In this document: positions 42,493 through 60,589 of the stretch, one piece after another
Numbering within the stretch: the first letter of the stretch is position 1
Layout of the letters: every line of letters starts with the position of its first letter
Assembly: GCA_016182525.1 (NCBI GenBank)
Contig: JACPGL010000029.1
Location: 22,997 to 86,996 of the forward strand
Reading direction: 5' to 3'
Source: Candidatus Kerfeldbacteria bacterium
GTDB lineage: Bacteria; Patescibacteriota; Patescibacteriia; JACPL01
DNA length: 64,000 bases
Program-made: the position numbers and the translations under genes
Notes under the pieces: model-generated
Databases searched by the model: none
Told to the model about the DNA's origin: nothing
The model's input: only the letters and a program-made list of their open reading frames with translations

Positions 42493-43650
42493 CTACCCGA
42501 GGTATGCTTTTAGAACATCGACTTGATCGGTTTTTTCCCATGTGAAATCTGCGTCATTGCGTCCGAAATGGCCATAGGCAGCGGTCTTTTGATAGATCGG
42601 CCTCTTGAGTTTAAGGTGTTTGATAATTCCGCGCGGCGTCAACGGGAAGTGCTTCTCGACAATTTCAGCAATGTTCTCTTCGGGCAGTTTGCCTGTCCCG
42701 AATGTGGTCACAAACACCGACACCGGTTTGGCAACGCCGATAGAATACGAGAGTTGGATTTCACACTTTTCGGCAAGTCCGGCCGCAACCACATTTTTGG
42801 CAATATAGCGGGCCATGTACGCCGCCGAACGATCGACTTTTGACGGATCCTTTCCTGAAAAACATCCTCCTCCATGGCGTGCATACCCGCCGTATGTGTC
42901 TACGATAATCTTGCGACCGGTCAGCCCTGTGTCCGCTTCTGGCCCTCCAACAATAAAGACACCGGTTTCGTTGATAAAGACTTTTGTTTCATCATCCATC
43001 CATTTTCCACACACCGGTTGAATCACTTCTTTCTTGATATCAGAGATGATCTGCTCACGAGACACTTCGGGATTGTGGTGAACGGCAATCACGACTGCAC
43101 GCACGCGCGTCGGTTTGCCATCCACATATTCAACCGTGACCTGCGATTTACCGTCCGGGCGAACCCATGGCAAGATTCCTTTTTTTCGAACTTCGGACAA
43201 TCGCATGGTTAATCCATGCGCAAGCGAAATCGGCAAGGGCATAAGCTCCGGCGTTTCATTGCAGGCAAATCCAAACATCAAGCCTTGATCTCCTGCTCCC
43301 TGCTCGTGATCAGAGCTTTCATTCACACCAACCGCGATGTTCTGGCTCTGTTCATGAATGCTCGTCAACACTCCGCAGTCATAACAGTCAAGGCCGAATT
43401 CTGGATTGGTGTATCCAATGTCTTTGAGCGTTCGGCGCACAAGCCCCTGAATATCGACATACGCATTTGTCGTGACTTCACCTCCGACAACAACAAGACC
43501 CGTCGTGGTAAAACACTCAACCGCGACTCGGGAGTTTGGATCCTTTTCCAAGAGCGCGTCGAGAACGGCGTCTGAAATCTGATCGCAAATCTTATCCGGG
43601 TGCCCCTCGGTCACCGATTCTGAAGTAAAGATGGAAGATGCATGAGCCAT
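42493..43650 (-). CDS. metK: S-adenosylmethionine synthase
   Basis: [25 protein letters not shown] and the [16 protein letters not shown]-like motif are canonical MetK sequences. Confidence 0.95.
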
Positions 43651-43690
43651 AGAGAGATAAAAAAATAGGAATCAAATGCGAAGAATACAA

Positions 43691-44776: not shown

Positions 44777-45476
44777 TCAGACGAACGCGGAGAAGGTCGC
44801 GAAATGTTTTGAGATACCCTGACGGACGAACTTTGGAACGTGTATCGTTCTTCCACTGAACCGGGACTTCTCGAATCCTCAGTCCATGTTTTTTTGCGAC
44901 AAAGAGGAGTTCGAAATCACTTCCCCATCCATCAATAGTCAGTTTTGTGAGGATTGGTCGAATTGCACTTGAATAGAGCTTAAACCCGCACTGCGTATCT
45001 TTGATTCCAGGGAGAAGAAGGAGTTGAATAAGACGGTTGCCGAACCGACCAAGCATCACCTTCCATTGCGATTGCGATTCAAGAATGCGCGACTCTGCGA
45101 GAGCGCGAGACCCAATGATCGCATCGGCCTCACGTTGGTGTTTCAGGAGTTTCAGAACCTCTGAAATGCGCGTAGAGGAATCGGCATCCATCACCAGAAT
45201 CCATTCGCCTTTCGCTTCTGCAATTCCAGTTCGGACAGCCCAGCCTTTGCCGTGGTTCTTTCCATCTCCCAGGATCTGAATACGAGGATCATGTAGTGCA
45301 TCGACAACCGCCCGTGTTCTGTCGGTGCTTCCATCATCGACGACAAGGATCTCGCTCTCTTGCCCTGCATATCCTTTCTGCATCAAAAACTGAAGGATAT
45401 CCCTAAGCGTTGAGCCAATTCGATGTTCTTCATTCCACGCAGGAACGACAATTGAAATTTTCAACATACCGCTCAT
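44721..45476 (-). CDS. GT2 polyprenyl-phosphate glycosyltransferase (Dpm1/GtrB-like, soluble form)
   Basis: LKISIVVPAWNEEHRI...LVVDDGSTDRT...VMDADSST is the GT-A core. The ATG at 45474-45476 was used as the start; an alternative lies at 45467. The listed ORF starts at a GTG. Confidence 0.75.
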   Translation of the reverse strand: MSGMLKISIVVPAWNEEHRIGSTLRDILQFLMQKGYAGQESEILVVDDGSTDRTRAVVDALHDPRIQILGDGKNHGKGWAVRTGIAEAKGEWILVMDADSSTRISEVLKLLKHQREADAIIGSRALAESRILESQSQWKVMLGRFGNRLIQLLLLPGIKDTQCGFKLYSSAIRPILTKLTIDGWGSDFELLFVAKKHGLRIREVPVQWKNDTRSKVRPSGYLKTFRDLLRVRLNDARGIYSEHHGKKESSF

Positions 45477-45490
45477 ACTATACCAAAATA

Positions 45491-45955
45491 TCACTCATTT
45501 TGCAAGGTCTTTGGGACATGTCGGAATGTCCAATGGCGAGTCATGAGAAAATTCCATCCGAGATTTGCACAAAGCGCTATGAGCTTTCCAAAAAGGTCAT
45601 GAAATCCAAAGATGAGCACGGAAACAGAAAGAGCGGTCTGGTTAATCCCAAATCCAACAGAATAAACCAAAAAAAACTTTACAAATTTCTTCGAAACCTC
45701 AGTGGAAGTATCACGAAATGTCCAACGGCGATTCAACACGAACGCAACGGAAACAGCAAGTAAGAAAGCGAAAAGATTTGCGACGAGGAAGTGTTCACGA
45801 AAGAAGTCAAACGCTCGAGTTAAAAAAAGATAGGAAAAAAAATCAATGGCTGTATTGACCACACCGATAATCGTGAACTTCACGAACTGCCGCGCAATAA
45901 GATGCGATCGTAAAATAGGAAGTGAGACAACTCGCTTTCGTATCCGATGGATCAT
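45491..45955 (-). CDS. GtrA-family small polytopic membrane protein (lipid-linked sugar flippase-like)
   Basis: The protein is 154 aa with 4 TM. The FVKFTIIGVVNTAIDFFSYLFL...LNRRWTF motif is typical of GtrA. It is adjacent to a GtrB-like GT2. Confidence 0.75.
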   Translation of the reverse strand: MIHRIRKRVVSLPILRSHLIARQFVKFTIIGVVNTAIDFFSYLFLTRAFDFFREHFLVANLFAFLLAVSVAFVLNRRWTFRDTSTEVSKKFVKFFLVYSVGFGINQTALSVSVLIFGFHDLFGKLIALCANLGWNFLMTRHWTFRHVPKTLQNE

Positions 45956-47160
45956 AAGGGCTCTCGCATATCAAGAGTCACGGTTCCTTCTTTCGAAAGT
46001 CCATCGCGGACGTACGAAATCTGGAGAGTATCCCCTGCCCGATGCTTTTGGATCTCATCCTGCAGTCTGACTCGCCCGCTCAAAGAAACGCCATCCACGG
46101 CAAGAAGAATATCCCCTTCTTGCAATCCGGCTCGATCGGCAGGTCCGCCCGTGATCACAGCGGGATGTTCTGCAGTGCGAACCAAAAGAGCGCCAGATGT
46201 GCGCCCGTCACGCAGGGTATCGGGGATATTCAACGCTTGTGCAAGATCAATGTACTGCACGCCTAATCGGGGACGCTCAATCGATTTTCCTTGGATGACG
46301 TTATCGAAGATCGGCAATACGTGGGACACAGGAATACCGCGCGCGAGAGCACTTTCTCCGGATGTTGAAAGCCCGAGAATCTTTCCGTCTGCCGTCGAGA
46401 TCGGCGCACCATTAAGTGAGGAGGTGAAGGGAGTCGAGATCATGAATTCCCCGCGAAGGTCTTCGGCGGTTAAAAGCGCATCTTGAAACGAGCTGGGAAT
46501 GGTGACGTACTGGCCTTGAAGCGCTGTTGGGAGTATTGCTCCATTTTTTGCCAAACCGCTATGACTCACCAAAAAGACTGTTGATCCAAGCGTTTCATCT
46601 TCAGGATTTCCAAATTGGGCAACAGAGAGATCAGAAGCATCAATGGAGAAAAAGATGAACCGACTCGCAGGATCGCGGGACACATCTTTCACGTCGAATT
46701 GCCGATGGTCGTGCGTCACGGCAACCAAAGGTGCGACAGGATCCTGGATGACACCACTGTGAGTCAACGCCAACCCATCTGATGTCACAATAACGGCATA
46801 CCCCAGAAAATTCTCCGCCGTGAACACATCCTGAATCTGGCCGGTGTTTTTTCGTGTAAAAAGTGCAAGTGTTTGAGGAAGCACGCGCTCTCGCAAATCA
46901 CGAAGCTCGGACTGCTCCTCTGCAACTGTCTTCGTCTCTTGGATAATGCGAACTTCAGTTTCCTGAGGAAGACGAAAAAATTTCAAGAAAGGCGAAGAAG
47001 AATAGTACGTCAGAGCAACGCGAAGCAGGGCAAGCGCAAGAACTCCTCCAATCATGCCCGAAAGGATACTGACAACAAGAATGCGGCGCCAGCGAGACGG
47101 TGAGCTTTTGTCCTCATCAACGCGAACTTTTGGTGATGTTGGAGAAGGTTGAACTTTCAT
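45952..47160 (-). CDS. HtrA/DegP-like trypsin-fold protein with an N-terminal TM anchor and a C-terminal PDZ domain; the catalytic Ser motif appears degenerate
   Basis: The ATG at 47158-47160 gives MKVQ. A His region (GLALTHSG) and a PDZ domain (GGPADRAGLQEGDILLAVDG) are present. The expected GNSGGP motif aligns to SLNGAP. Confidence 0.55.
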   Translation of the reverse strand: MKVQPSPTSPKVRVDEDKSSPSRWRRILVVSILSGMIGGVLALALLRVALTYYSSSPFLKFFRLPQETEVRIIQETKTVAEEQSELRDLRERVLPQTLALFTRKNTGQIQDVFTAENFLGYAVIVTSDGLALTHSGVIQDPVAPLVAVTHDHRQFDVKDVSRDPASRFIFFSIDASDLSVAQFGNPEDETLGSTVFLVSHSGLAKNGAILPTALQGQYVTIPSSFQDALLTAEDLRGEFMISTPFTSSLNGAPISTADGKILGLSTSGESALARGIPVSHVLPIFDNVIQGKSIERPRLGVQYIDLAQALNIPDTLRDGRTSGALLVRTAEHPAVITGGPADRAGLQEGDILLAVDGVSLSGRVRLQDEIQKHRAGDTLQISYVRDGLSKEGTVTLDMREPL

Positions 47161-47164
47161 ATTT

Positions 47165-47926
47165 TTACGCCCACGGTGCACTAAGGAGTGCGATCGCAAT
47201 CGTTGCGCACCCGATAATCAGATACCGTTTGAGCACTGATCGATCGAGCGCGTGCACATAATAATAGCGCGATACATTGACGATCATGTAATACAGGGAG
47301 GTGAGCACAAGTCCCGCAACAGACATGCCAAGCGGTGAAAGCGCTAACACCCAAAAGCTTTCGACAAGAACAATACTGATGATGAGGATGGACACTTTTG
47401 ACTGACCAAAGGGAATCATGCTCACGGCCATTGCGGAAAGCGTTGAAAGCGTGACCCCAAGGAGCCACACGAGAAGCAGCGCCCACACCGGTTGATTTAA
47501 AAAGCGAAGCAAGCCGAATAGCGCGCTCCCCATAAAAAACATCGCGAGAATGTTGAGCGAACTGGTGGTGTTGGCAAGTGATCGCGGCTGAAAGCGTTCC
47601 TGATCGTAATGAAACGAATAATAGCTATCCAGAAAAACGCCGAGAAGGCCGGCCGTGACAAGGAGACTTGCAAAAAAGATCACGGGCTGCTCAACAAAAA
47701 GCAAAAATCCAAATAACCCGAATATAACGAGCGGCGGCGTAAGATAAAATTCAATAATGGAGGCGATCGAAAAACCTTGATGAATAGCGATGAGCACAAG
47801 GAGGATCCCAAATCCTGAGGCAAGAAGAATCACATGCCAAAATGCAGGGAAAAAATACAACAGAACCCCTGATCCTGTCAAAAGAACCGGACTCACATAC
47901 ACAAGAAGACGAAGAAAGAGAATCAT
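47165..47926 (-). CDS. Polytopic integral membrane protein, function unknown
   Basis: It has ~7 hydrophobic helices. The ATG at 47924-47926 (MILFLRLLVY) was chosen because it avoids a 107-nt overlap with the upstream gene. The listed ORF extends to 48037. Confidence 0.4.
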   Translation of the reverse strand: MILFLRLLVYVSPVLLTGSGVLLYFFPAFWHVILLASGFGILLVLIAIHQGFSIASIIEFYLTPPLVIFGLFGFLLFVEQPVIFFASLLVTAGLLGVFLDSYYSFHYDQERFQPRSLANTTSSLNILAMFFMGSALFGLLRFLNQPVWALLLVWLLGVTLSTLSAMAVSMIPFGQSKVSILIISIVLVESFWVLALSPLGMSVAGLVLTSLYYMIVNVSRYYYVHALDRSVLKRYLIIGCATIAIALLSAPWA

Positions 47927-47930
47927 GCGC

Positions 47931-48566
47931 TCATTTGATAATGAATTGAATTTCGCCGTCGCGGAGTTCAACATCTTTGACCGTACTCGCAAGCAGAATT
48001 TCGGTTCCAAATGTTTGGGCAAGTACGGATGTTGCAATGCTTTTCTGAAGAAACCGAGGGATAGAGACGGCGCCGAGTTTCATTGAAGTCACATCGAACT
48101 GAATTCCATCAGCCGCATTGATCGTCGCTTCGAATAAGAGGACGAACCGGTCATCTGGCCCAAACACTCGAAGGTATTCCATCCCTTCCGGTACAAGGAC
48201 GACTTGACTGACGGTATCGTCTTCGGATTGAAGACGGCGAGTGAGTTCAGCTTCGGTAAACTTCAGATCGACACCGTTGAATCCAATCGTGAACCTTTCG
48301 GCGATCGTCGATGAATCATTCTCACTCGCGACCACTCGGCGCGTGGGAACAGGCGCTTTGTAGACAAGATCCGAAAGAATCGGAATGGTGAACAGACCCG
48401 AAGCCGCAACAAACCACAAAGCGACACTGAGTATACCGAAAAAGACAAGAAATATCAAGGCGCGGAACGCCTGATGCATCCATCGAAAGGGATGAAATCC
48501 AATCCGCGATTTGGGCGGTGAAACAGACATGACCAATGGTTGCTCTTGTGTTTTTGAAACTCGCAT
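47931..48566 (-). CDS. Hypothetical bitopic membrane protein (211 aa) with an extracytoplasmic domain
   Basis: It has an N-terminal TM (ALIFLVFFGILSVALWFVAASGLF). No family was recognised. Confidence 0.45.
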   Translation of the reverse strand: MRVSKTQEQPLVMSVSPPKSRIGFHPFRWMHQAFRALIFLVFFGILSVALWFVAASGLFTIPILSDLVYKAPVPTRRVVASENDSSTIAERFTIGFNGVDLKFTEAELTRRLQSEDDTVSQVVLVPEGMEYLRVFGPDDRFVLLFEATINAADGIQFDVTSMKLGAVSIPRFLQKSIATSVLAQTFGTEILLASTVKDVELRDGEIQFIIK

Positions 48567-48567
48567 A

Positions 48568-49608
48568 TTAATAGGTCAGCCCATCTTTTTCGGAAACACG
48601 CTTCGCGCTATCCGAGCGGAGATCATAGACCATAACGGTCGTAGTACTTCCCTGAACCTCTTTATAGAGGACGGATTCATCAATGATCCGGACATCAAAG
48701 CCATTTTCCGAGATGGTTTGTGACGTTTTTGAAGCGAGCGAATAGACAAGCAGTTTTTGCCCACTCTGTTGATCGTCGAGCGCATACACGAGCGACGTAG
48801 AGTCAGCGGACAATTCGCCAGTAACGCCGGTCGTTTTTGGTAGAGAGATATTCCCCACGCGCGCCAGCGTCCCAGTTGAATCAAGCGTCGCAAGATCAAG
48901 CACGCCATCAAACTCGGCGAAAACAAGAAATGCGCTCCCTCCGGTTTCTCCGACAAAGCTCCACACAGCGCTTGAAAGCGCTGTCGGCTCTCCAAATGTG
49001 CCGTCAAGATTCCGCAAGCGAATAGCCAGCTCACTCTGCCCCTTTTCGTTTTTCGAAAGAGTGGCGATCCCGCGCCCATCACGAAGCCATCGCGCTTCCT
49101 GAATGTCGCTCGCAATTCTCTGCCGTTCTTTTGAGGCAATGCGGATGACTGATCCGCTGAGTATTCCCTCTGAACCTCGCTCGAGCAAAAAAAGCGCTTT
49201 GTCGTCCGGAGAAAGCGCAAAATCAACCACTTCGAGTTTCCCCTCACTGACCCTCGACTCTGCGCCATTACTCTCCGCAATCCACACACTCCAGAACGGA
49301 TCGTCAAACGTTGAAAAAGCGATGAACTTCCCTGACGGCGAACGAACCACACGCTGTTCATCTCGATCGGGCGTTTCGCGCTGAACTTCAGTCCCTACAT
49401 CCGGCAAGACAAGATAGAGATCTGATTTCTTGTTCTCGGTGCGAATCAGCGGGATCATCTTATCAAAAGGAGGATACGTTGATGACTGCTGTGTGATCCG
49501 GGCTTCTGGAAGTTGAGACGGGAGAAAAAATACAAAAATACCGACGAGGAATGCGCACATAAAGAGAATTCCGAACAACCAACGAGTCATAAGGGTTTTC
49601 CCTTCCAA
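48568..49608 (-). CDS. TolB-like/PD40 beta-propeller protein with an N-terminal signal anchor
   Basis: It has an N-terminal TM and then repeated SPDGK/SPSGK...F motif blades (VRSPSGKFIAFST, ALSPDDKALFLL). Confidence 0.5.
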   Translation of the reverse strand: MEGKTLMTRWLFGILFMCAFLVGIFVFFLPSQLPEARITQQSSTYPPFDKMIPLIRTENKKSDLYLVLPDVGTEVQRETPDRDEQRVVRSPSGKFIAFSTFDDPFWSVWIAESNGAESRVSEGKLEVVDFALSPDDKALFLLERGSEGILSGSVIRIASKERQRIASDIQEARWLRDGRGIATLSKNEKGQSELAIRLRNLDGTFGEPTALSSAVWSFVGETGGSAFLVFAEFDGVLDLATLDSTGTLARVGNISLPKTTGVTGELSADSTSLVYALDDQQSGQKLLVYSLASKTSQTISENGFDVRIIDESVLYKEVQGSTTTVMVYDLRSDSAKRVSEKDGLTY

Positions 49609-49611
49609 CGT

Positions 49612-50796
49612 CTATTCATATCGAAGCGCCCATAGGGGATTCAACCGCGAGGCGCGCCACGACGGATACAAACCGGTGATAAACCCAAGTAAAACCGATA
49701 AGATAAGCATCGCAACGGCAAGATCGAGATTCACAATAAAGAGTTGAACCGTTTCACCTCCATATCGCTCGGCGAGGATATTAATACCACTATTTGCAAG
49801 AAATCCTACCAACCATCCTGCGCCAATTCCGATCACCCCGCCAATCAAACCCACCACAAGCGCTTCTGATAAAAAAATAGCCATCACGTCGCGATTCGTC
49901 GCACCGACCGATTTCATAATCCCAATGTCGCGCGTGCGTTCAAGCAGAGAAATCGTGAGGGTATTGAACATGCCGATTGACGCAACGACGAGCGCAATCA
50001 CACCAAAGATCGCCAGGATCACTTTCACAACATTAAAAACCACCGTCACTTCGGTGAGCGTGTCGGCCGGCGACTCCACAAAATATCCCATATCCTGAAT
50101 CGTTGTGCGAGTTGATGCAAGCAACTCAGGAGCTTTCGCAAGAGCTTTCACACTACTGTATTCACCGAACTCAACATCGGCAAGAGATGAAAGCGGAGCG
50201 AAAAGATAATTCTCATCTTCCGTTTCAACAACCCCATGGACGGTGTATGTTTTTTCTTTCCGAACAACGTCCGTTGTTCCTTTGACCGGAATAAAAATCG
50301 CGAGCCCAATTTCTTTGCCGAGAATCTCACTTGTGTTCTCGTATCCAAGAAGCTTTGAAAGCGTTGAGGAAACAACAACCCCGCCCGTGGCATCGGTAAA
50401 ATAGTCCCCACTCGCAAGCGTATTCACCTCAAGTTTGGCAAATTTTGATTCAACGCTATGGAGAACACTCTCCGTTGTGGTCTCGCCAAGCGTTGCCTGC
50501 ACTGAAAAACTTGCGCGCGGGCTCACCGATTCGATCGATTCGATGTCCTTGAATTTCTTTACCGTCTCTGCGTCAAGCTTCAAAATGTCGGATTTGCCCT
50601 TTGATACGTTCAAGAGGCGAAGTGCTTCTGATGAGGTAATCTGTTTCACCGTAATTTCTTCAAGCCCGCGCCCCAAAGAAACCAAAAACACAATGGCGCC
50701 GATCCCAATCACGACAGCGCCGACGGTTAAGAATGTTCGCAGTTTATTCGAACGGAACGTATCTTTGGCAATGTAAAATACGTCAATGGGCTTCAT
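49612..50796 (-). CDS. ABC transporter permease, FtsX/MacB family (large periplasmic domain between TM1 and TM2)
   Basis: The N-terminal TM is followed by a ~220-aa extracytoplasmic domain and then a 3-TM FtsX-like C-terminus. The protein is 394 aa. Confidence 0.85.
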   Translation of the reverse strand: MKPIDVFYIAKDTFRSNKLRTFLTVGAVVIGIGAIVFLVSLGRGLEEITVKQITSSEALRLLNVSKGKSDILKLDAETVKKFKDIESIESVSPRASFSVQATLGETTTESVLHSVESKFAKLEVNTLASGDYFTDATGGVVVSSTLSKLLGYENTSEILGKEIGLAIFIPVKGTTDVVRKEKTYTVHGVVETEDENYLFAPLSSLADVEFGEYSSVKALAKAPELLASTRTTIQDMGYFVESPADTLTEVTVVFNVVKVILAIFGVIALVVASIGMFNTLTISLLERTRDIGIMKSVGATNRDVMAIFLSEALVVGLIGGVIGIGAGWLVGFLANSGINILAERYGGETVQLFIVNLDLAVAMLILSVLLGFITGLYPSWRASRLNPLWALRYE

Positions 50797-51671
50797 TTCT
50801 TCGTGCGTTTTCTCATCAAAATTTCACGCGCAAGATCAACTTCTTGATGAAATTCTTTCGGATTGATGTGAAGGGCTCGCGCCTGTGCATCGAGTTCAGA
50901 TCGGCGAGACTCCCGAGCCAGTTTTCGTGCTTCGCGGGTCAGACGAACATCTTGAATTTCTTTTTCTGATCGCTGCTGCTCTATCGATTTAATGATTTCT
51001 CCATCGCGCATATACAATACGCGATCGCCGTAATGCAAGTAATCAGGATTATGCGTGACGAGCAAAATCGTACGCTTGGATTTGCGATTGAGATCATGAA
51101 AAATCGCCATAATTTCTTCGGCCGTTGCCGAATCCACGTTCCCGGTTGGCTCATCGGCCAGAAGAATCCACGGGTTGTTCACGAGAGCGCGCGCAATCGC
51201 CACCCGCTGCTGCTGCCCTCCAGACAGTTCGGCTGGCCGATGGGAATAATATTCGCCAAGTCCCACCTCGCGAAGCAGCTCTTTGGCTCGGTGTTGGCGC
51301 GTTGACCGCCGTACGCCTCGGAAGAGCTCGGGCAGCGCAACATTATTCACGATATTCATGGTTTTGAGCAAGTTGAACTGCTGAAACACAATCCCGATTT
51401 TCTCGCGCCGGTGCCGCGCAAGCTGACTCATCGAAAGATGCGTTAAATCCTCTCCGCGGATCCGCACAACGCCTTTTGTGGGCGGTTCTAATCCTGCGAT
51501 GACGTTCAAAAGCGTGGACTTGCCGCATCCTGACGGACCGAACAAAATCACATACTCCCCAGGATGCACCGAAAAATCGATATTTTTCAGCGCGTGCAAC
51601 ACATTCTTCCCTAAAAAAAATTCTTTGGTGACGTTTTTCAGTTCAATCACTGGAGTGGAGTTCCGTGTCAT
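50793..51671 (-). CDS. ABC transporter ATP-binding protein (MacB/LolD/FtsE-like) with a ~70-aa charged C-terminal extension
   Basis: It carries Walker A (GPSGCGKST), the signature [15 protein letters not shown] and Walker B ([12 protein letters not shown]). The ATG at 51669-51671 overlaps the stop of the giant gene (ATGA). Confidence 0.9.
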
Positions 51672-54600
51672 TCTTTTCGAAAGAAAATATGCTTGATCTC
51701 TCCAACCCACGAGAATGTTCGCTCGAGTGAAGAGACGACTTCTTCAAGCACCGATTCCGCCGCTTGGGGGGTGAGCAATGTGAAATCGCTGGACTGTGCA
51801 ATGTTCCCCGATTCATCAATGGAGAGAGCGCGGAAATGATACGTGGTACTCGGCAAGAGACCCGGCAAGATCACGGTGTGCGAACGATTCAGCGTATCAT
51901 CTTTTGGCGAGCGTAATTGATACTGGCCTCCGGTGACAACGCCCGGAGAGTACTCAACCTGCGCTGTGGAGAATTCATCGGCAACCCAAAAGACGATCGC
52001 TTGCACTTTGCCGCCTGCGCCCAAAGAAGAGACTTCCGTCTTCATGCCAGTCAGGACCGGCGGTGCGGTATCGGCATTTGTCGTCAAGGTATTTGAACCG
52101 GAGGCGGCGCGATTCCCAAACTCATCGGTGCCCGTGATGCGGAACGAATAGGTCGTTTTTGGTCTCAGACTTGTAAGCACAATCTCATGCGCCGTTACAC
52201 GATCAGGTTTGCCCTGCGACTGATCGAATAATCCCGCCTCGCCAAATTCAACAATCGAATCGGTTGCGACATTCGTTGACCAGGTGATTTTCGCGGTGTC
52301 GTAGCCCACGCTATCGAGCGTCACTCCTGAAACTGTCGGAAGGGTTCGTGTCGAAAAGACATAATCATCGGATGCAATCACGCTACCATTCTCTTCTGCT
52401 CCGATCACTTGTACATGATATGTCACCCCATTGTTAAGCTCATCAAGAAGCACCGTGTGTTGTGTCGTAAAATCCGTGCTCTCATCATTGATGACTGTTC
52501 CATATTCGGTGTCTTCACCATACTGCAGTCTTGAGTTTGCAATACGGTTTGTTGTCCACGAAACAATCGCCGAATCGAGTGTGATGCTACTCACCTGCAG
52601 CCCAAGCACAGACGGATTCCCGATCGCCGCTCTTGACGTGGTGAAATTCAAGACATCCGAAATCGTTTCGTTGTTATACACATCAACAGATTGGACTTTG
52701 TAATAATATGTTGTTGCGGCCGAGAGATTTGAAAGTGTCACAAAATGCGAAACATTCAAGAGCTGGTCATCCTCGGTTTCTTGATCAAGATTCGCGGGCG
52801 TTGTGCCATAGACCACGCTTGAGGTGGACGCAGCATCGGTGACCCACGAAATGATCACCGTGTTTGAGGAAACGCCGGCCGATTGCGTGCCAATATCCGA
52901 GATCGTTGGTGGGACATCGGATCCAATAGGTGCAGTGGTCAAAAAGGTGCCAGTTTCCCCAAGCGAGAGATTGCCCGCTTCATCAGTTGAGCGGACGCGG
53001 AAATAGTGCACCTTGAGCGGAGTCAGACCAATAATGGTAACGCTATGATTTGTGATGAGTGTTGGATCGCCTTGAATCGTTCCAAACTCTTCGGAATCTC
53101 CGAATTCAACAAACGAATCTGCCGGCTCGTTTGTCACCCATGTGACGGTCGCGGTTGAATCTGTCGGAGTGACAATGGCTCCATCTCCGGTAACACTCGG
53201 TGCAGTCACATCATCATCCGACTCGATCGTTTCAAACGTATACTCATCGCCGATCGATTCATTACCGTTGGCGTCTGTGGAACGAACGCGATACGAATAG
53301 GTTGTTTGGGGCTGCAAATTTTCGATTTCGACTTGATGCGCAAGGACATATTCTAAATCGCAGACAATCGTGCCATAATCAGAGCTTGTTCCAAATTCAA
53401 TGCACGATGTGGATGATTCATCGGTTGTCCATGCAATGGTTACCGAATTTTGTGTTGTCACGGCAACGGGAGCCTCACCAGAAAGATCGGGCCCTTGCGC
53501 ATCTGCTCCGCCTGGTTGGCCAAAAGCAACGGATGAAGGGCTGGAATTGTTGCCTGCGCTGTCCTGCGTGACAATACGATAATAATAGGTTGAGTTTGCC
53601 GCAAGACCCGTATCGAGGAAGCCACTATCCGTAATCGTATTTAAGGTTGCGCGATTTGAGTACGTTGAACTATCGGTTGAGCGCTGAACGACATATCCTC
53701 CAAAGTCGGGGTTGCGAGCAGATGTGACTGGCGTCCATGTTGCCGCTAAACTGTAGCGATCCAGCCCAGCATCAGAGGCATCGGCAACCGAAACCGCAGT
53801 CACAATGTCGTTTGCAGACGTATCAAGCGTAATCGTATCGCTCGCTGTCGTGGCAGTATTGCCGTATGTATCACGGTACTTCACATACGCAGTGCGTATG
53901 CCATCAGATCCTGCGGTCAACCGCCACGCTTTTGCTGTCGTGTAGGTCTCCCACGTTCCGGAATTCGTCACCAAACCATTTGTATCGACGACTGTTCCAA
54001 ATGTCGTGCCGTCGTTACTGAATGTCATCTGTATGGCCGTATCATCACTTGAACTCAAGGTAAGGGTGACCGCGACAGAGTTGGTTGTTGACGCGGAGGA
54101 GTTAATCGTGATCGAAGTCGCTCCTGCAAGCGGCGTTTTCGTATCAACATCAAAGCTGCTGCTTGTCGCCGAAGCGGTGTTGTTGAGGGTATGCCCATCA
54201 TCAAGCGTCACCTTCACTTTGACCACGTCATCAAGGAATGAATTCGTGAAATTGCTTGAGAGCGTCCAATGAATCGTTTTGGTTGCTGCTGTTCCTGTCA
54301 CGGCAACACCTGAACCCACATTACCAGTTTTGGTTGTCGGCGTGTTCCATGTGGTTCCGCCGTCAACCGAATACTGTAGCGTCACGGTGACTGAAGTGTC
54401 ATCTTGATCACTTGCCTCGTAGGTGACTTTTGCCGTTCCATCCGTTTGCGCAACCACGGCAAGATTTGCGATGACCGGAGCGAGATTGCGCTCGTATGTA
54501 ATGTTAAACGTATCGAGCGTTGGAGAGGTGTCATCTGATGACGAGTCAAGATAGGCTTGAATGCGGAGATACCGCGAACTTGTCAAACCAGAGAGACTTG

Positions 54601-57600
54601 CACCAGAACTTGTGTAGTATGAGGAGTAACTAGAATAGGTGACTCCATCCGATGAGGTGGCAAACCGAAATTTCACATCAGTGCCAGAGGGTTCAGTCGT
54701 TGTAAAATTAAGCGTGCTCCATCCAACTGTGATGCCGGCATCAAAATCGTATGTCCATGTGCCATTGAGCAAGCTCGCGGCAACGGTGACATCTTCCACT
54801 TGCGGATTTTGGGATGCGCTCGTGGTGGAAAGATCAATACGGTACTGCATATACCGATGCCCGTCGGTCATACAACTGTTTGTTGTCATGTCCGTGCCGC
54901 TGGAAATGCCGCTGCACGACGCCCAATCGGTTGCTCCGCTCATGTCCGAATTGTTGGACGACCGCACTTTCACGGTAATGGTTTGGGAATTCGCGGTTGA
55001 ATTAAACGTAATATTCCCCCACGTGGAATTGGTTGTGCCAAAATCTTTGATGGTTGAAACCAACGAACCAGACGGCGCAACACCCGGATAGAACCGTGTG
55101 ACACCTTCAGATGTGCCCAGCACAAGATCCGCAACATTTCCGGACGCAATAGCCCCTTGGATCGCGGTCATATCGTTATCCACCATATTCGGTGTCGAAC
55201 TTGACTCGCGCCAACTATCGCCCTGAACCGCGTTCGCGCTATTCACGCTATTCAATTGGGTAAGCGAACCATCATCAGCGCCGCCGGCATTGGTTGCCAC
55301 CCATGCTCGCGTTCCATCACTTGTGGGAAAAACTGCCGACACATTATCAATTGTTCCTTCCAAGGTGTGATAGCGGAACAGGGGTCCATTTGTCAGTGTT
55401 CCGTTATTTGATTTTGTTCCGGAATCTGTCGCCGTTGTGCCCGACCCATCATTGAAGTGCAACAACAATCCTTTTGTCGCACTGCCCGGGAAACTAAACT
55501 CTGCGCCTGGCACGGTAAAAGACGCGCCAGAATGTTCCGCCGTGTCGGAAATCAAGAGCTCATCAATCGTGCCGTTGAAGAAGGCTTCTTCTCCATTGTG
55601 GTCTGCGCGGCCAATATACAGTGCTTGTTCCGATGGATCCGGCAATGCCGAAATCGTGCGTGTGGCCTGACGCGTGCCATCAATATACAAGCTGGCGGTC
55701 GATCCATTAAAGACCAGTGACACCAAATACCACTGATCCGCAGTCCAGGATGTTGTTGTCGATTGCAATGTCACCGCATTCCCGACGGACCGAACGTCTC
55801 CAACGCTCGTTAGCCCCTGGCCAACATACAGCTCCCCTTGGAACGACCCTAGGCGATTAAATTCCGCATACGTGGACAGACTTGCCGTTGCTTCTTCCCA
55901 TTCGCTCTGATCATCACAGTACTCGGTGTTGCCAGCACGCTCGGCATAGCAGGCAAAGAGCTGCTCACGATCCTCATCATTCATATACAGCTTATCCTGA
56001 AAAACGAATAAGTCATTCACGGTGTTCTTCGTTCCGGGATAGACGAGCGTCCATTCGTTCGCATTATCACATGCCGTGGTTGTGCCGCCTACGCTCGGGT
56101 CGCACATGTACACATCATTATCCCCACCAGCAGTACTTCCGAAACCAGCGTACAGGCGACCGCGGAACGTCGCTAAGGCGTTGACCGTTTCATATTCCAC
56201 CCCATCCCACACCGTGGACCAGTCGCCGGAGTCGCACAGTGTCGCACTACCGGTTGCAGACGGATTGCACATCAATACATCGCCATCTCCAGCTCCACTC
56301 CCCATGCCTGCGTATAACCGACTATTGAAGACCTCGAGGGAATTAAAAAGTTCCTGTGAGCCATTGTAAGATGTCGACCAGTCGCCGGAGTCGCAAAAAT
56401 CTGTCGCACCGGTTGTCGTTGGATCACACACTATAACATCGCCATCACCTGCTGAACTTCCTGATAAACCGGCATAGAGATAGCCATTCATCTCCTCAAA
56501 GACAATCGCATTTTCTGCAAGCGACGAATTATACACAAGAGAGAAATCTCCAGACTCACACGTTGTTGCTCCACCGGTTAGATCCACATCACATCCGGCA
56601 ATATCCCCTTCTGCACTTCCATCTCCCATCCCGCCATACAGATTTCCCTTAAACTCTTTTGCCGAATACACCCCATTGTAGACGGTTGACAATGTATAAA
56701 TGCTGGAGAAGTCAGCCGTTTCACAGGTATCCGCGTCGCCGTTGCCGCTCGGATTACACATAATGATTTCTCCGGTTCCCGTGTTTACCTCCACGCCGGT
56801 ATACAACCGGTCGTTAAAGTTGACCGATTCCCATGTCTGATCATTTGACCCATCATAGGCGGTGGGGTTGCTCATTTTCATCACATTCGCTCCTCCGTTG
56901 GTACCTGTTCCAGACGTGACAATCAAATTTCCTTGGTAGGTTCCCATGTCTCCCCATGTACTGGTGTCGGTATTGACCACCGTTGTCCACTCCCCAGTAA
57001 GACAGATGGTATCGGCACCTGGTGTACACTCATACACATCACCTTCGCCTCCTGAACCTCCGCCTGATGCATACACTTTTCCGTTAATCGTTTCCATATC
57101 ACGGACATAATCATCAGCGGAATTATCGTATGACGAAGCCCAGTCCGCATCTTCGCACACTGTTGACCCACCAGAAGTTGCCGGGTTACACGCGATAAGA
57201 TCTCCGTCCCCCGCACTCGTATCACCAAAGCCAGCATACAGAGCTGTGCTCGTTGCAAAGAGCACGCGAATACTTTCATACGACGACGTATTGACCGGCG
57301 TGGTATTCGCTCCATCCCACGCGCGAATATCCGAACTGTTCACAAACCAGATATCAGCATCGCTACTTGTCGCCGTTCCTTGCGTCGTAAAGTACACAAA
57401 GGTATCCGCGCCGGAGGTGAAGGTTGTCAGACCACGCGTTGAGAGATAGTTATCAAAATCCAGGTACACGACCCAATCAGTGCTGGTACATTCGTTATCC
57501 CCGCCGGGTGTACACTTTAACAAATCAGCACTGCCGGCGGTTCCTTCTGTGGTCATGTAAAGCTCACTATTATAGGCCGCAAAACTTGTGACGCTTCCTT

Positions 57601-60589
57601 GATTGCTTGTATTCGCATACGCGCTGGTAAAGTCCAATGCATTGTCGCAAAGACTTGCGTTTCCTGCTGTCGCTGGATTACAGATCGTAACATCCGCATC
57701 GCCCGCGCTCGATCCCATCCCGATATACATGCGACTATTAAACACTTCGATATTACGAGCGGATTCATACGATGCGCCCGCATCATAGGCAGCCGTAAAA
57801 TCTCCATTCGCATCACAAATGTCCGCATTTCCATTTGATGATTGCGTACAATAGAACAGTTCGGCTTCTCCCGCTTCTCCACCAAACGAAACGTACATGG
57901 TGCTGTTCAGCGTCGTAAAATCCGTGACGTAGTTAAAATTTGTCGCGGCGACGCTCGTATCATAGGCAATCGCCCAATCCCCGGAATCGCATGTTGTTGC
58001 CCCGCCTGTTGTCGCGGGGTTGCAATAATACACATCCCCATCGCCCGAGGAGTTCCCGGTCCCAGCATACAGATAACTGTTAAAAACATACAGCGATGAA
58101 ACAAACTCATACGCCGAACCTGGGGCATACGATAACGACCAATCCAGGGGTGAGTCACACTTTGCGGTCGAGGCGCCACCCGCTGCTGGATCGCACACCC
58201 AAATTTGCCCGTCCCCCGCGATGCCCTGCGTCCCGACATACAATTTTGAATTGAACGTCGCCGCCGCGCCTTCGGCCATAAATGCATCAAAACCCGTATC
58301 ACGCACTTTTGTCCAATCACCAAAGTTATCGCATCTCGTTGCTCCCCCGATCGTCGCCGGATCGCAGATAAAAAGATCACCGTCGCCATCACCGGTTCCA
58401 CCGCCGGCGTACAGATAGCCGTTAAAGACGGTTAAGCCCTCGAATCGCTCATAGTTCGCGCCTGTATCGTCGTAGGAAATATGGATGTTGCCGAGATCAA
58501 AGATATCGGCTTCCCCCGCGGCCGCGCCGACGCCCGCATACACGCGACTATTGAAAACTTCAATATTCTCGATCCCGTTCGTTGCGTCGTAACGGAAATA
58601 GGTGCGCCAGTCGGCGCTTTCACAAACATTCGTATCCCCGCTTGCTTGGGGATAGCAATACCACAAGTCCGCCAAATCCTCGACTGACGCATACAGATAC
58701 GTTCCATCCTGCGCAAGGTCGGTGACACGATTTTCCAACGTATTCAGTGAGATGGTCCAGTCGCCAGAGTCGCAAAACGTCGCGCCTCCTGAATCTGCAG
58801 GGTCGCAGACATAGACATACCCATCCGTCACATTGCCTCCTGTTCCAATATACAAGCGACTGTTAAAAACGATCAGCTCATCAATATATTGCGTGCCGGT
58901 TGTCAGCACAGTTGTCCAATTATCGCCGTCAAACGCTAACACCGAGCCATCCCCTTGGCTCGTCCCGACTCCAATATAGAGGACATCGTTAAATTCCACA
59001 ACGCCATTGACGTGATCAGTGGTGCCTGTCAGGGATCCCCACAAACCCACAGTGCTCGCTGTTGAAGCGCCGGCGCCAAGCGGACCTTGATCGCCGAACT
59101 CAAAATTCAGTTTTCCGGTCTGATGGTCAAAATACGCTTGGAATTGCTCGCCTTTCGAAAGAAGCGGCGCATCTTTGGCTTGGGAATCGGCAGAAAAAGC
59201 ACTTGGGAACTTCACATACATGTCAACCGTAAAGCTCGCGGTCAAATCCATGTCATCGTCGTCGCTCACTTTGACATAGTCATCGGTGCCGTCGAATTTC
59301 AATGCGCTTTTAAACCCGGTTGAAGCGTAACCGGAGTTGCCGGCCGTGGCTTCGTTGACATAATGTCGCACCGTTCCCGAAGCTTGGGTGGAATGTTCCT
59401 GAAGAATGGAAAGTCCTGAATTGGTTCCGACAAAAATCGTATTGGACGTTGCTTGCGCCGTTGAAGTATTGACCGTGGCTTCAAGCGAATTGATGGTATT
59501 GGAAAGAATCGCCGGAGTGGTTGCCGTGGTATAGTTCACGGTTTCCGTAAATCCCGCGCCTAAACCTGAAACATTATCCTTTCGCTGCAGCTTCGCGGTT
59601 GTTGAACCGTAATAATAGAGTTCATTGTCGGTTGTGACTCGAACAAGGGAATACGAACTTGTTTCCGAAGAATTTTTGCTTGTTGCGGCGGTTTCATTGA
59701 CGACCGTCACGCCACCCGCTGTTGCCACGGCAAGATAGGTGCTTCCGGAAATGACCGCGCCCCACAGGTCGTTGACGTTATTGTTCACAATGGCAGGGGA
59801 TGTGGACGAGAGATAGGTGGCTGAACCCACCGAGGTGTTTCCACTAATGTTGTTAATCACATACTTGAACACCCCGCCATCGCCGTCGCCGGCATACACA
59901 TTGGTGGCATCGGCATAGACAGCGGTAAATCCGTTTGCGAGCGAAACGTATCCTTTGGACGTGTTTGTGGATTTGGTGATCACGTCCAGCCCACCGGCTG
60001 TTGCAATAAACAAATACGTGCCATTGTCAAAAACGTCATTGATGACATTCGAGCCCGTATTCAATCCTGACCCGTTCGTAAAATTCTGCGCCACTTCGGC
60101 TTTGAGTTTTGTTTCGGTGGTGGGGTTAATGGCGTAATCAGCCGACGTGTAGTTGTTACTCCCCCAATTCGTATCAACAAATTGGTTATTTGTGGTTGAG
60201 AGCACCAAATCTGTGCCGGTTTTTACGGTATTTGACTTTGTGGCAGCAGCATTATCCCAATCCACATCTGTTGGAACTGTCAAGGTAAGGGTTGCCGCAG
60301 TAATGCGCTGATACGAAACCATTCCCGCCAAAATCAAAACAGCAAGAATCGGAAGAGCGATCGCTCGGTGCTCGCGGAAAAATGATCCAAGGTGCGCTAT
60401 TCTCAGGCGAAACGGTTTCGCTTGCGCACGGGTAAGCTTCAGATCCTCCTTATGATGATGCGGTATGGTTGTTTTTCTTTTCCTCCGTTTGGCCAAGGTT
60501 AGAAAAATAAATAAACTCAAAGCACCATTTATTATAACACAAAATCCCCTTTCATGCGATTGTGGATAAGTAACGAAAAAAGAATACAC
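51668..60589 (-). CDS. Giant (~2.9k aa) N-terminally anchored surface protein. It has ~20 tandem ~50-aa Cys-containing propeller-like repeats, two LamG (concanavalin-like) domains, Ig-like modules and seven FN3/purple-acid-phosphatase-N-like repeats. The true start is probably downstream of the listed GTG, near the Shine-Dalgarno at 60445-60451.
   Basis: The ORF is 8.9 kb and uninterrupted. The repeat consensus is FNSxLYAGxGxxxGDGDVxxCxPxxxGGATxCDSGDWxxxYD. The LamG domains lie at about aa 425-500 and 1600-1700. FN3-like 100-aa units (AWTTDESSTSCIEFGTSSDYG...YSYRVRSTDANGN) occur seven times at the C-terminus. A TM segment (AIALPILAVLILAGMV) lies near the N-terminus. Confidence 0.85.
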   Translation of the reverse strand: MYSFFVTYPQSHERGFCVIINGALSLFIFLTLAKRRKRKTTIPHHHKEDLKLTRAQAKPFRLRIAHLGSFFREHRAIALPILAVLILAGMVSYQRITAATLTLTVPTDVDWDNAAATKSNTVKTGTDLVLSTTNNQFVDTNWGSNNYTSADYAINPTTETKLKAEVAQNFTNGSGLNTGSNVINDVFDNGTYLFIATAGGLDVITKSTNTSKGYVSLANGFTAVYADATNVYAGDGDGGVFKYVINNISGNTSVGSATYLSSTSPAIVNNNVNDLWGAVISGSTYLAVATAGGVTVVNETAATSKNSSETSSYSLVRVTTDNELYYYGSTTAKLQRKDNVSGLGAGFTETVNYTTATTPAILSNTINSLEATVNTSTAQATSNTIFVGTNSGLSILQEHSTQASGTVRHYVNEATAGNSGYASTGFKSALKFDGTDDYVKVSDDDDMDLTASFTVDMYVKFPSAFSADSQAKDAPLLSKGEQFQAYFDHQTGKLNFEFGDQGPLGAGASTASTVGLWGSLTGTTDHVNGVVEFNDVLYIGVGTSQGDGSVLAFDGDNWTTVLTTGTQYIDELIVFNSRLYIGTGGNVTDGYVYVCDPADSGGATFCDSGDWTISLNTLENRVTDLAQDGTYLYASVEDLADLWYCYPQASGDTNVCESADWRTYFRYDATNGIENIEVFNSRVYAGVGAAAGEADIFDLGNIHISYDDTGANYERFEGLTVFNGYLYAGGGTGDGDGDLFICDPATIGGATRCDNFGDWTKVRDTGFDAFMAEGAAATFNSKLYVGTQGIAGDGQIWVCDPAAGGASTAKCDSPLDWSLSYAPGSAYEFVSSLYVFNSYLYAGTGNSSGDGDVYYCNPATTGGATTCDSGDWAIAYDTSVAATNFNYVTDFTTLNSTMYVSFGGEAGEAELFYCTQSSNGNADICDANGDFTAAYDAGASYESARNIEVFNSRMYIGMGSSAGDADVTICNPATAGNASLCDNALDFTSAYANTSNQGSVTSFAAYNSELYMTTEGTAGSADLLKCTPGGDNECTSTDWVVYLDFDNYLSTRGLTTFTSGADTFVYFTTQGTATSSDADIWFVNSSDIRAWDGANTTPVNTSSYESIRVLFATSTALYAGFGDTSAGDGDLIACNPATSGGSTVCEDADWASSYDNSADDYVRDMETINGKVYASGGGSGGEGDVYECTPGADTICLTGEWTTVVNTDTSTWGDMGTYQGNLIVTSGTGTNGGANVMKMSNPTAYDGSNDQTWESVNFNDRLYTGVEVNTGTGEIIMCNPSGNGDADTCETADFSSIYTLSTVYNGVYSAKEFKGNLYGGMGDGSAEGDIAGCDVDLTGGATTCESGDFSLVYNSSLAENAIVFEEMNGYLYAGLSGSSAGDGDVIVCDPTTTGATDFCDSGDWSTSYNGSQELFNSLEVFNSRLYAGMGSGAGDGDVLMCNPSATGSATLCDSGDWSTVWDGVEYETVNALATFRGRLYAGFGSTAGGDNDVYMCDPSVGGTTTACDNANEWTLVYPGTKNTVNDLFVFQDKLYMNDEDREQLFACYAERAGNTEYCDDQSEWEEATASLSTYAEFNRLGSFQGELYVGQGLTSVGDVRSVGNAVTLQSTTTSWTADQWYLVSLVFNGSTASLYIDGTRQATRTISALPDPSEQALYIGRADHNGEEAFFNGTIDELLISDTAEHSGASFTVPGAEFSFPGSATKGLLLHFNDGSGTTATDSGTKSNNGTLTNGPLFRYHTLEGTIDNVSAVFPTSDGTRAWVATNAGGADDGSLTQLNSVNSANAVQGDSWRESSSTPNMVDNDMTAIQGAIASGNVADLVLGTSEGVTRFYPGVAPSGSLVSTIKDFGTTNSTWGNITFNSTANSQTITVKVRSSNNSDMSGATDWASCSGISSGTDMTTNSCMTDGHRYMQYRIDLSTTSASQNPQVEDVTVAASLLNGTWTYDFDAGITVGWSTLNFTTTEPSGTDVKFRFATSSDGVTYSSYSSYYTSSGASLSGLTSSRYLRIQAYLDSSSDDTSPTLDTFNITYERNLAPVIANLAVVAQTDGTAKVTYEASDQDDTSVTVTLQYSVDGGTTWNTPTTKTGNVGSGVAVTGTAATKTIHWTLSSNFTNSFLDDVVKVKVTLDDGHTLNNTASATSSSFDVDTKTPLAGATSITINSSASTTNSVAVTLTLSSSDDTAIQMTFSNDGTTFGTVVDTNGLVTNSGTWETYTTAKAWRLTAGSDGIRTAYVKYRDTYGNTATTASDTITLDTSANDIVTAVSVADASDAGLDRYSLAATWTPVTSARNPDFGGYVVQRSTDSSTYSNRATLNTITDSGFLDTGLAANSTYYYRIVTQDSAGNNSSPSSVAFGQPGGADAQGPDLSGEAPVAVTTQNSVTIAWTTDESSTSCIEFGTSSDYGTIVCDLEYVLAHQVEIENLQPQTTYSYRVRSTDANGNESIGDEYTFETIESDDDVTAPSVTGDGAIVTPTDSTATVTWVTNEPADSFVEFGDSEEFGTIQGDPTLITNHSVTIIGLTPLKVHYFRVRSTDEAGNLSLGETGTFLTTAPIGSDVPPTISDIGTQSAGVSSNTVIISWVTDAASTSSVVYGTTPANLDQETEDDQLLNVSHFVTLSNLSAATTYYYKVQSVDVYNNETISDVLNFTTSRAAIGNPSVLGLQVSSITLDSAIVSWTTNRIANSRLQYGEDTEYGTVINDESTDFTTQHTVLLDELNNGVTYHVQVIGAEENGSVIASDDYVFSTRTLPTVSGVTLDSVGYDTAKITWSTNVATDSIVEFGEAGLFDQSQGKPDRVTAHEIVLTSLRPKTTYSFRITGTDEFGNRAASGSNTLTTNADTAPPVLTGMKTEVSSLGAGGKVQAIVFWVADEFSTAQVEYSPGVVTGGQYQLRSPKDDTLNRSHTVILPGLLPSTTYHFRALSIDESGNIAQSSDFTLLTPQAAESVLEEVVSSLERTFSWVGEIKHIFFRKE
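60531..60539 (-). promoter_or_regulatory. Candidate extended -10 promoter (TGTTATAAT on the minus strand) for the giant surface-protein gene
   Basis: The reverse complement of 60531-60539 is TGTTATAAT. It lies ~80 nt upstream of an AAGGAGG Shine-Dalgarno (reverse complement of 60445-60451). Both sit inside the annotated N-terminal extension of the ORF. Confidence 0.3.

Follow-up and report, generated by a model that had tools for sequence, protein, structure and literature searches.

How a giant surface protein is held at, or released from, the cell envelope is a question of particular weight in Patescibacteria, which account for a large part of all bacterial diversity and spend their lives attached to other cells, and for which such proteins are prime candidates for host contact. 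The question is raised by a locus in a stretch of 64,000 nucleotides (hereafter the window) from Candidatus Kerfeldbacteria bacterium, a member of the Patescibacteria (assembly GCA_016182525.1, contig JACPGL010000029.1, positions 22,997 to 86,996 of the forward strand). Here the gene for a giant surface protein is followed by genes for the ATPase and the permease of an ATP-binding cassette (ABC) system, and then by genes for a β-propeller protein and several other membrane proteins. An initial annotation, made from the sequence of the window, had tied the ABC system to the giant, and relatives of the system across Patescibacteria do adjoin homologues of the giant rather than occurring independently of them. 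That annotation had missed both the phylum-wide extent of the pairing and a conserved helix at the C terminus of the giant. Our reading, to which we assign a probability of about 0.5, is that the ABC complex, working from the membrane, acts on the C-terminal, cell-proximal end of the giant after its export and does not itself export the protein.

Pairing of the ABC system with giant proteins in Patescibacteria

The distribution of the pairing was examined in 85 loci, 80 of which are the best of 561 hits of the permease alignment in GTDB species genomes, a selection biased towards closer relatives. Open reading frames (ORFs) were called by a simple longest-ORF rule and searched with profiles of the window proteins, and the 10-kb flanks cut many giants short. 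The loci are labelled as Kerfeld-, Berkel-, Sacchari-, Woese-, Moran- and Andersenbacteria, CPR3 and other Patescibacteria, although some of these labels are unreliable.

Across the 85 loci, the ATPase gene is nearly always located directly upstream of the permease gene. In 45 of the 85, the gene immediately upstream of the ATPase encodes a homologue of the giant; such a homologue is at most three genes upstream in 50 and exclusively downstream in 8 more. Similarly, a protein bearing the C-terminal motif described below is found in 56 of the 85 loci, whatever the gene order, within four genes of the permease/ATPase pair. Counted from the permease, this protein occupies position −2 in 44 loci, −3 in six, −4 in one, and +1 or +2 in six. 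The 83 classifiable loci comprise the 56 positives, 11 with a large ORF that either runs beyond the fetched DNA or is without the motif, eight on cut contigs, and eight negatives. Motif-positive loci are spread over the whole neighbour-joining tree of the permeases, and this spread suggests an ancestral association with occasional loss or relocation.

Gene order was compared in several of the closer relatives. In locus L003 (61% permease identity), the order is giant, ATPase, permease, propeller, 211-amino-acid protein, DUF5656 protein, HtrA-like protein, GtrA, GT2, epimerase, and MetK. The same order is present downstream of the permease in L087 (60% identity), whose contig starts just upstream. 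Two loci with 53% permease identity (L004 and L007) have the order ATPase, permease, giant. This order is also found in L006 (46% identity), where the giant is followed by proteins of 186 and 356 amino acids and then by the DUF5656 and HtrA-like proteins; neither the 186- nor the 356-amino-acid protein has detectable similarity to the 211-amino-acid protein or the propeller.

The permease family therefore has a conserved partner in the genome, namely a surface protein with an FN3 array, which is often of giant size. The full-text literature that was searched contains no description of this pairing or of the C-terminal tag. Although the parts are of known kinds (a type VII ABC system, a PD40 propeller, a DUF5656 protein, and an HtrA-like protein), their phylum-wide pairing and the tag appear to be undescribed.

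The giant protein and its C-terminal motif

The N terminus of the window giant carries a basic region and one hydrophobic segment that could serve as a Sec signal or an anchor. A variable region of Cys-containing repeats comes next, then Laminin_G_3 domains, and finally a conserved C-terminal array of FN3/Pur_ac_phosph_N-like domains. Only the C-terminal third (residues ~2150-2960) is conserved phylum-wide, whereas the N-terminal two-thirds are lineage-specific. No NCBIfam model matches the giant, and neither a sortase-type LPXTG signal nor a C-terminal transmembrane anchor was seen in it. Within its N-terminal two-thirds, many repeats of ~55-60 amino acids carry paired cysteines in the pattern C.P....G.....CD...DW (37 Cys in total). 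These repeats are placed between two Laminin_G_3 regions and are not conserved in the giants of other lineages.

The most distinctive part of the protein is its end. In the window giant, the C-terminal motif consists of the last FN3 strand and an amphipathic helix of ~25 amino acids, QAAESVLEEVVSSLERTFSWVGEI. Alignment of the ends of the giants yields the family consensus ytvLTsrkreSfLq.i..nLE.tFsWlg, with a few variable residues after the helix. Full-length matches of a hidden Markov model of this motif are confined to 0-12 amino acids from the C terminus. The helix has a high helical hydrophobic moment and a mean hydropathy near 0, which indicates an amphipathic helix and not a transmembrane segment. 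The motif likewise occurs on both members of the tandem pair of partners in L011, and in L079 and L080 it is carried by partners of only 209 and 367 amino acids. Because partners this small carry the motif, the client of the ABC system would be defined by the tag and the FN3 repeats and not by its size.

At the other end of the protein, a basic N-terminal stretch with one hydrophobic segment, often followed by an AxA-like site, was present in 15 of the 19 giants examined, and we read this segment as a predicted Sec-type signal or anchor. The giants of five loci (L008, L012, L035, L083, and L086) have in common an additional N-terminal motif before the hydrophobic segment, KSTKT.LPF…LR.KF.WYYKWHLNP. 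This motif, which is predicted to be cytoplasmic and is not clearly seen in the window giant, may be a specialised targeting region.

The ABC permease and ATPase

To judge from their sequences, the ATPase and the permease together are a complete and apparently active type VII (MacB/YtrEF-like) ABC system. The permease matches the Pfam families MacB_PCD (PF12704, 67.5 bits with a cut-off of 27) and FtsX (PF02687, 83.6 bits with a cut-off of 25.5). Its four transmembrane (TM) segments are located at residues 23-41, 252-270, 304-322, and 352-370, and an outer loop of ~210 amino acids (residues ~42-251) separates TM1 from TM2. An AlphaFold2 model generated from a 38-sequence alignment (pLDDT 84.8) gave full-length Foldseek matches with a probability of 1.0 to MacB (5nik_J, TMq 0.79), YtrF (9o9x_C, 0.72), and LolE (0.71), and also to Spr0695. 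Sequence matches in the Protein Data Bank (PDB) are, in descending order, YtrF (4e-59), MacB (9e-46 to 1e-38), Spr0695 (2e-37), LolF/C/E (6e-26 to 3e-16), and FtsX (4e-7), and thus FtsX is the weakest type VII match of the permease in sequence as well as in fold. The Pfam families, the map of TM segments, and the fold matches confirm the separate-subunit MacB/FtsX-type system that had been recognised initially. The nucleotide-binding domain (NBD) and the permease are encoded separately, there is a single permease gene at the locus, and no ABC/FtsX paralogue was found elsewhere within the window.

Clustering of the permease with LolCDE or FtsEX housekeeping orthologues, which the initial annotation had raised as a reason to doubt a link with the giant, is not observed. 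Against the NCBIfam equivalog models, the permease scores 79.8 bits for MacB (NF007826, cut-off 966), 82.3 bits for LolC/E (TIGR02212, cut-off 362), and 49-52 bits for the FtsX models (cut-offs 225-255). Assignment as a LolCDE or FtsEX orthologue was rejected because all of these cut-offs are missed widely, only one permease gene is present, and the outer domain is a full MacB-type domain and not the small FtsX type.

On the outer side of the permease, the loop between TM3 and TM4 (residues 335-348, ~49753-49794 on the minus strand) includes the well-conserved residues N335, N339, L341, A342, G346, and G347, and few such residues occur elsewhere in the extracytoplasmic parts. This loop is a candidate site for contact with a client.

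The ATPase matches PF00005 (E = 3e-39), and its Walker A, signature (LSGGQQQR), Walker B (LLADEPT), and H-loop (THN) motifs are all intact in the translation. In NCBIfam it aligns best with the NBDs of MacB, LolD, and FtsE, with scores of 224 bits for MacB (NF007826, cut-off 966), 222.5 bits for LolD (TIGR02211, cut-off 307.75), and 215.9 bits for FtsE (cut-off 264.85).

The Lys/Arg/Glu-rich tail of the ATPase that had been pointed out earlier is real, as residues 226-292 contain 45% K/R/E/D, compared to 24% in the core, and have a net charge of +6. This tail holds a module of ~55 amino acids with the pattern R.LAR..R.ELD..A..lgI.P..y..E.dLA.AIL, which is conserved in the window clade and is present in one copy in L006 and in two copies in L003, L004, and L007. 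We considered the tail as a Rho_N or helix-extended-helix domain and rejected this assignment because the similarity is sub-threshold (E = 0.006 and 0.088), although it is kept as a lead. Family-wide, the tails are lineage-specific and range from 0 to ~200 residues, with those of other lineages being absent or different. The tail in L053 contains a significant helix-hairpin-helix domain (HHH_5, 31 bits), and five other lineages have in common tail repeats of the form LD.P...GG.GL..R.A (the lineages listed with notable tails are those of L009, L015, L031, L079, and L082). Such two-helix motifs are typical of nucleic-acid binding, and they occur here on a membrane ABC ATPase.

Possible action of the ABC complex on the giant protein

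Type VII transporters such as MacB, LolCDE, HrtBA, and FtsEX have no transmembrane pore and work mechanically on clients that are located on the outer side of the membrane. The initial annotation had viewed the window pair in the frame of MacB pumps, which act with a periplasmic adaptor and an outer-membrane channel. On the basis of cryo-EM studies, Patescibacteria are commonly taken to have no outer membrane, and since none is expected in this host, neither a MacB system with adaptor and outer-membrane channel nor a TolB-Pal role of the propeller fits. The lack of a HlyD-like adaptor had been noted correctly. None is present among the eight operon-region products that were scanned (45952-61570), and neither a HlyD-like protein nor another channel component was found among the recurrent neighbour families of the 85 loci. 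Export of the giant by the pump, which the same frame implied, is also unlikely given the Sec-type signals at the N termini of the giants and a type VII fold without a transmembrane pore. With such signals, the ABC system would not be needed for the giant to cross the membrane.

In the mechanism that we favour, the giant would be exported by Sec via its N-terminal signal. The variable N-terminal part would then form the distal, target-binding end, and the FN3 stalk with its terminal helix would form the cell-proximal end. This orientation is suggested by the combination of a variable distal part, a conserved stalk, and a terminal tag, which is the layout of a surface adhesin with a cell-proximal C terminus. 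The ABC complex would not pump anything through the membrane, and ATP hydrolysis in the cytoplasm would instead be converted into mechanical work at the outer face of the membrane. Most likely the target of this work would be the C-terminal end of the giant, which might be docked and thereby anchored, extracted or released from the outer leaflet, or placed under tension. These variants correspond to a static anchor, to a Lol-like release from the outer leaflet, and to an FtsEX-like transmission of force, and all three are compatible with the proposal. More tentatively, the MacB-type ABC system could be an ATP-powered anchor or motor for giant host-contact proteins, with the helix as a docking tag that replaces anchoring by sortase and LPXTG; we consider this fuller version possible but doubtful.

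Several observations weigh against an action of the ABC complex on the giant. The extracytoplasmic domain of the permease is its least conserved part (0.44, compared to 0.6-0.83 for the TM and cytoplasmic parts), which is a poor fit with the binding of a highly conserved helix. In eight loci whose flanks are long enough, the ABC pair is present without a partner in the vicinity. In a Tn-seq study of Southlakia, a cultured Saccharibacterium, a possibly orthologous MacB-like pair (SEML1_0053/0054) adjoins a tRNA gene and no giant (PMC10633639). The overlap between the stop codon of the giant gene and the start codon of the ATPase gene is not conserved, as it is seen in only 4 of 44 loci. Furthermore, the helix may serve the giant itself, for oligomerisation or as a cap. 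Functional statements beyond family and fold are drawn from gene context, including contact between the ABC complex and the giant, and the structural models are of single chains.

Three other explanations were considered. The first is that the pair serves general envelope homeostasis or the efflux of peptides or antibiotics, as do YtrEF, YknYZ, and the MacB homologues of Gram-positive bacteria, and is merely co-transcribed with the giant gene without acting directly on its product. The closest solved relative of the permease by sequence is YtrF, whose role is reported as envelope-related and unresolved (PMC8060467, PMC12772383). Also in keeping with such a general role are the eight loci without a partner, the envelope and glycan genes that surround the window locus, and the Southlakia pair, which stands alone and has only a growth-defect phenotype (PMC10633639). 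However, the adjacency to the giant outlasts both an inversion of gene order and a full turnover of the flanking genes in loci labelled as at least seven candidate phyla, and the partner always carries the same terminal motif. We therefore judge this explanation to be unlikely.

An FtsEX-like role is somewhat less probable still. Mechanotransmission by FtsEX-type systems to bound partners is well established (PMC7668044, PMC6355983), and the ABC system might in the same way switch an extracellular enzyme or scaffold, such as the propeller, the HtrA-like PDZ protein, or a wall hydrolase, to open the wall for the giant or to remodel the envelope, so that the giant would be a passenger. The window clade offers four proteins with predicted TM segments after the pair, and in other clades the gene at position +1 often encodes a TM-anchored TPR protein (12 loci). 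These downstream proteins are not conserved family-wide, whereas the giant is. Moreover, no hydrolase domain was detected in them, and the HtrA-like protein is without a catalytic triad. Finally, a type I secretion-like system, in which the C-terminal motif would be a secretion signal and the ABC system would export the giant across the cytoplasmic membrane, is very improbable: a conserved signal at the extreme C terminus beside an ABC system does resemble the logic of RTX adhesins and their type I secretion systems, and the giant is without LPXTG or a C-terminal TM anchor, but the permease has the four-TM MacB fold and not the six-TM fold of type I exporters, the giants carry N-terminal Sec-type signals, and no membrane-fusion protein or outer-membrane factor is present among the scanned genes and recurrent neighbours.

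If the helix does serve as the docking tag of an ATP-powered anchor or motor, surface display would have a new mechanism, with regulated holding, tensioning, or release of an adhesin, and type VII ABC mechanotransducers would have a new class of client. A protein terminus is thus a possible new type of client for the mechanotransmission family to which LolCDE, FtsEX, and MacB belong. The cassette provides a testable handle on how giant proteins are held, as well as a sequence tag for finding clients in any genome. It also warns against annotating such pairs as 'macrolide export' or 'lipoprotein release'.

Accessory proteins of the window clade

The initial annotation had proposed the propeller and two additional membrane proteins as partners of the ABC system. 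Their presence in related loci was borne out, as the same order is found in L001, L003, and L087. Homologues of the propeller and of the 211-amino-acid protein are present in L001, L002, L003, and L087 (the L002 contig ends after the gene for the latter). Homologues of the DUF5656 and HtrA-like proteins are present in L001, L003, L087, and L006, with L006 detectably keeping only these two. None of the four proteins was found in the 80 wider loci, and therefore the proposed partnership is conserved in close loci but is not general. Hydropathy suggests that all four are membrane proteins. Their probable role is that of accessory factors of the envelope, in scaffolding or quality control, and not that of core parts of the system, and they are restricted to a Kerfeldbacteria subclade.

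The 340-amino-acid protein has one N-terminal TM helix (residues 2-21), which is followed by an all-β domain with ~28 strands from residue ~46 (AlphaFold2, pLDDT 80). It has no Pfam match, and its orthologue P0003 matches PD40 only below the cut-off (E = 0.0078). A profile of the protein gave 984 weaker matches over multiple stretches, and all 10 of the 10 that were tested are PD40 propellers. The top PDB structures found with Foldseek are TolB propellers (E ~4e-11, TM-scores 0.41-0.45), and propellers of S9 peptidases reach a TMq of up to 0.62. The TolB/PD40-like propeller proposed initially thus has support at the level of fold, and by its model the protein is TolB-like in fold but not TolB in function. 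Orthologues are rare: a set of 5.8 billion proteins contained three, and a set of 1.84 billion representatives contained two clusters of them. PDB profile searches with the propeller and with the 211- and 253-amino-acid proteins returned nothing significant.

Other clades have different genes after the permease. In 12 loci (including L010, L017, and L062), position +1 encodes a TPR-like protein of ~216 amino acids with an N-terminal TM helix, which holds the position occupied by the PD40 propeller in the window clade. A LOG-like protein is also often encoded at +1 in the wider loci, and genes for response regulators and histidine kinase-like proteins recur nearby.

The 211-amino-acid protein has one TM segment (residues 36-54) and a C-terminal domain of ~150 amino acids that is presumed to be on the outer side. 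It has no match in NCBIfam (E <= 0.01) or Pfam (E <= 10), and its relatives are its own orthologues only. A presumed likeness to YpmS/DUF2140 or LmeA was dropped.

The sequence of the 253-amino-acid protein points to a divergent relative of DUF5656. Its own score against PF18900 is 13 bits (E = 0.064), which is below the cut-off of 23.3, but its homologue L006_254 (phmmer E = 3.8e-23) scores 28.9 bits, and the proteins P0273 and P0274 also carry PF18900. The homologue search with this protein found three proteins only. Assignment as an exosortase, a rhomboid, or a CAAX protease was set aside because neither a conserved Cys nor a Ser/His or Glu motif could be recognised in the alignment by eye.

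The HtrA-like, GtrA, and GT2 genes downstream of these are part of the same conserved block, which had been overlooked initially. The HtrA-like protein matches Trypsin_2 (38.3 bits) and PDZ_2 (42.8 bits). In a phmmer alignment to HhoA, whose triad we read from the motifs NAH, D, and GNSGG, the triad positions of the window protein are G, R, and N. The corresponding residues in the orthologues from L003, L001, and L006 are N/T/N, A/Q/S, and E/E/N, which are equally non-canonical. The protein is thus probably a non-catalytic PDZ scaffold, that is, a pseudo-protease with an N-terminal membrane anchor. Binding of the C terminus of the giant by its PDZ domain was judged unlikely because the sequence beyond the helix, the final 3-5 residues, shows no conservation. 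GtrA and GT2 follow the block in every close relative examined, which suggests a lipid-carrier-linked glycosylation step at the envelope. Any role of this step with the giant would be a deduction from gene context.

Gene arrangement and surroundings

The coordinates of the features are collected in Table 1. The five genes described initially are all confirmed in the sequence at the positions given for them.

Table 1. Genes and sequence features of the cassette, in window coordinates
Feature	Position	Strand	Remarks
Giant surface protein	51668..60589	-	~2,900-2,973 aa, start codon uncertain
Conserved C-terminal motif of the giant	51689..51829	-	residues ~2921-2967; helix about 51695-51766
ABC ATPase	50793..51671	-	292 aa, MacB/LolD/FtsE-like nucleotide-binding domain
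C-terminal extension of the ATPase	50796..50996	-	residues 226-292, charged, helical
Type VII ABC permease	49612..50796	-	394 aa; extracytoplasmic core domain nt 50044-50673
Divergent PD40/TolB-type β-propeller, membrane-anchored	48568..49590	-	340 aa from ATG; in-frame TTG at 49608
Bitopic membrane protein	47931..48566	-	211 aa, one TM
Polytopic membrane protein, divergent DUF5656 relative	47165..47926	-	253 aa, 8-9 hydrophobic segments
HtrA-like protein, membrane-anchored	45952..47160	-	Trypsin_2 + PDZ
GtrA-like membrane protein	45491-45955	-	Pfam GtrA_DPMS_TM on orthologues
GT2 glycosyltransferase	44721-45494	-	Pfam Glycos_transf_2 on orthologues

The genes for the giant, the ATPase, the permease, the propeller, and the 211- and 253-amino-acid proteins are all on the minus strand, with intergenic gaps of -4 to ~20 nucleotides. 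Both overlaps that had been reported as signs of translational coupling are present. The ORF of the giant ends with FRKE-TGA, and the ATG of the ATPase (51671-51669) overlaps this TGA to form ATGA at 51668-51671. Likewise, the ATG of the permease overlaps the TGA of the ATPase as ATGA at 50793-50796. Such an overlap alone is ordinary for a compact operon, and the gap between the stop codon of the giant and the start codon of the ATPase ranges from -4 to ~460 nucleotides in relatives. The operon itself is inferred from gene packing alone. A promoter and terminator scan of 42400-61800 gave counts no higher than chance.

The gene that immediately precedes the giant gene on the minus strand, ~66 nucleotides away, encodes a CorA magnesium transporter (60656-61570). 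The best promoter-like match of the region (61620-61592) precedes CorA, and the transcription unit may start there, although the scan as a whole is at chance level. Around the cassette, a conserved block (42493-47160 and ~36-45 kb in the window, and also in L003 and L087) contains GtrA, GT2, a UDP-sugar epimerase/decarboxylase-like gene, and MetK. The epimerase, like GtrA and GT2, was identified from Pfam matches of its orthologues. Additional NDP-sugar epimerases or dehydratases are found in the same block, and the window has at least six ORFs of the epimerase family and three that are GT2-like. Surroundings this rich in epimerase and GT2 genes suggest a locus for surface-glycan synthesis or protein glycosylation.

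Comparison with known systems

The permease has the same fold, with four TM segments and a MacB periplasmic core domain, as MacB, Spr0694-0695 of S. pneumoniae, and YknYZ of B. subtilis, and the NBD belongs to the same family, with 20-23% identity. In contrast to MacAB-TolC, the NBD and the permease of the window system are encoded by separate genes, as in Spr0694-0695, there is no HlyD-type adaptor, and no outer membrane is expected. The system also differs from MacB-type systems in its conserved neighbour, which is a giant FN3 protein and not a small toxin, a peptide, or an antibiotic substrate. Similarly, TolB and the 340-amino-acid protein both have a PD40-type propeller, but the latter has an N-terminal TM helix and is without the alpha/beta domain of TolB. 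No Tol or Pal genes are present among the neighbouring genes that were scanned or annotated via orthologues.

By sequence, the closest solved relative is YtrEF of Bacillus subtilis (PDB 9o9x; E = 4e-59, with 24% identity in the structural alignment). Like the window pair, YtrEF has a separate ATPase and permease, and it functions in a monoderm host, as the window pair is expected to. It differs in that its operon, ytrGABCDEF, has a link to cell-wall stress, and in having no known giant partner.

LolCDE, HrtBA, and FtsEX have the same type VII fold and provide the precedent for a mechanism that works on an external client and moves nothing across the membrane. The window system falls far below the family cut-offs for LolC/E and FtsX, and it has one permease gene rather than LolC and LolE. 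Furthermore, a C-terminal amphipathic helix, which is the proposed client here, has no precedent in these three systems.

The giant itself is comparable to adhesins of the LPXTG/sortase and RTX/type I secretion classes, with which it has the same layout of an N-terminal signal, a variable distal region, an Ig/FN3-like stalk, and a C-terminal sorting element. Instead of an LPXTG signal, a TM segment, or RTX repeats, the giant carries a terminal amphipathic helix, and its gene has a MacB-type ABC system as its neighbour.

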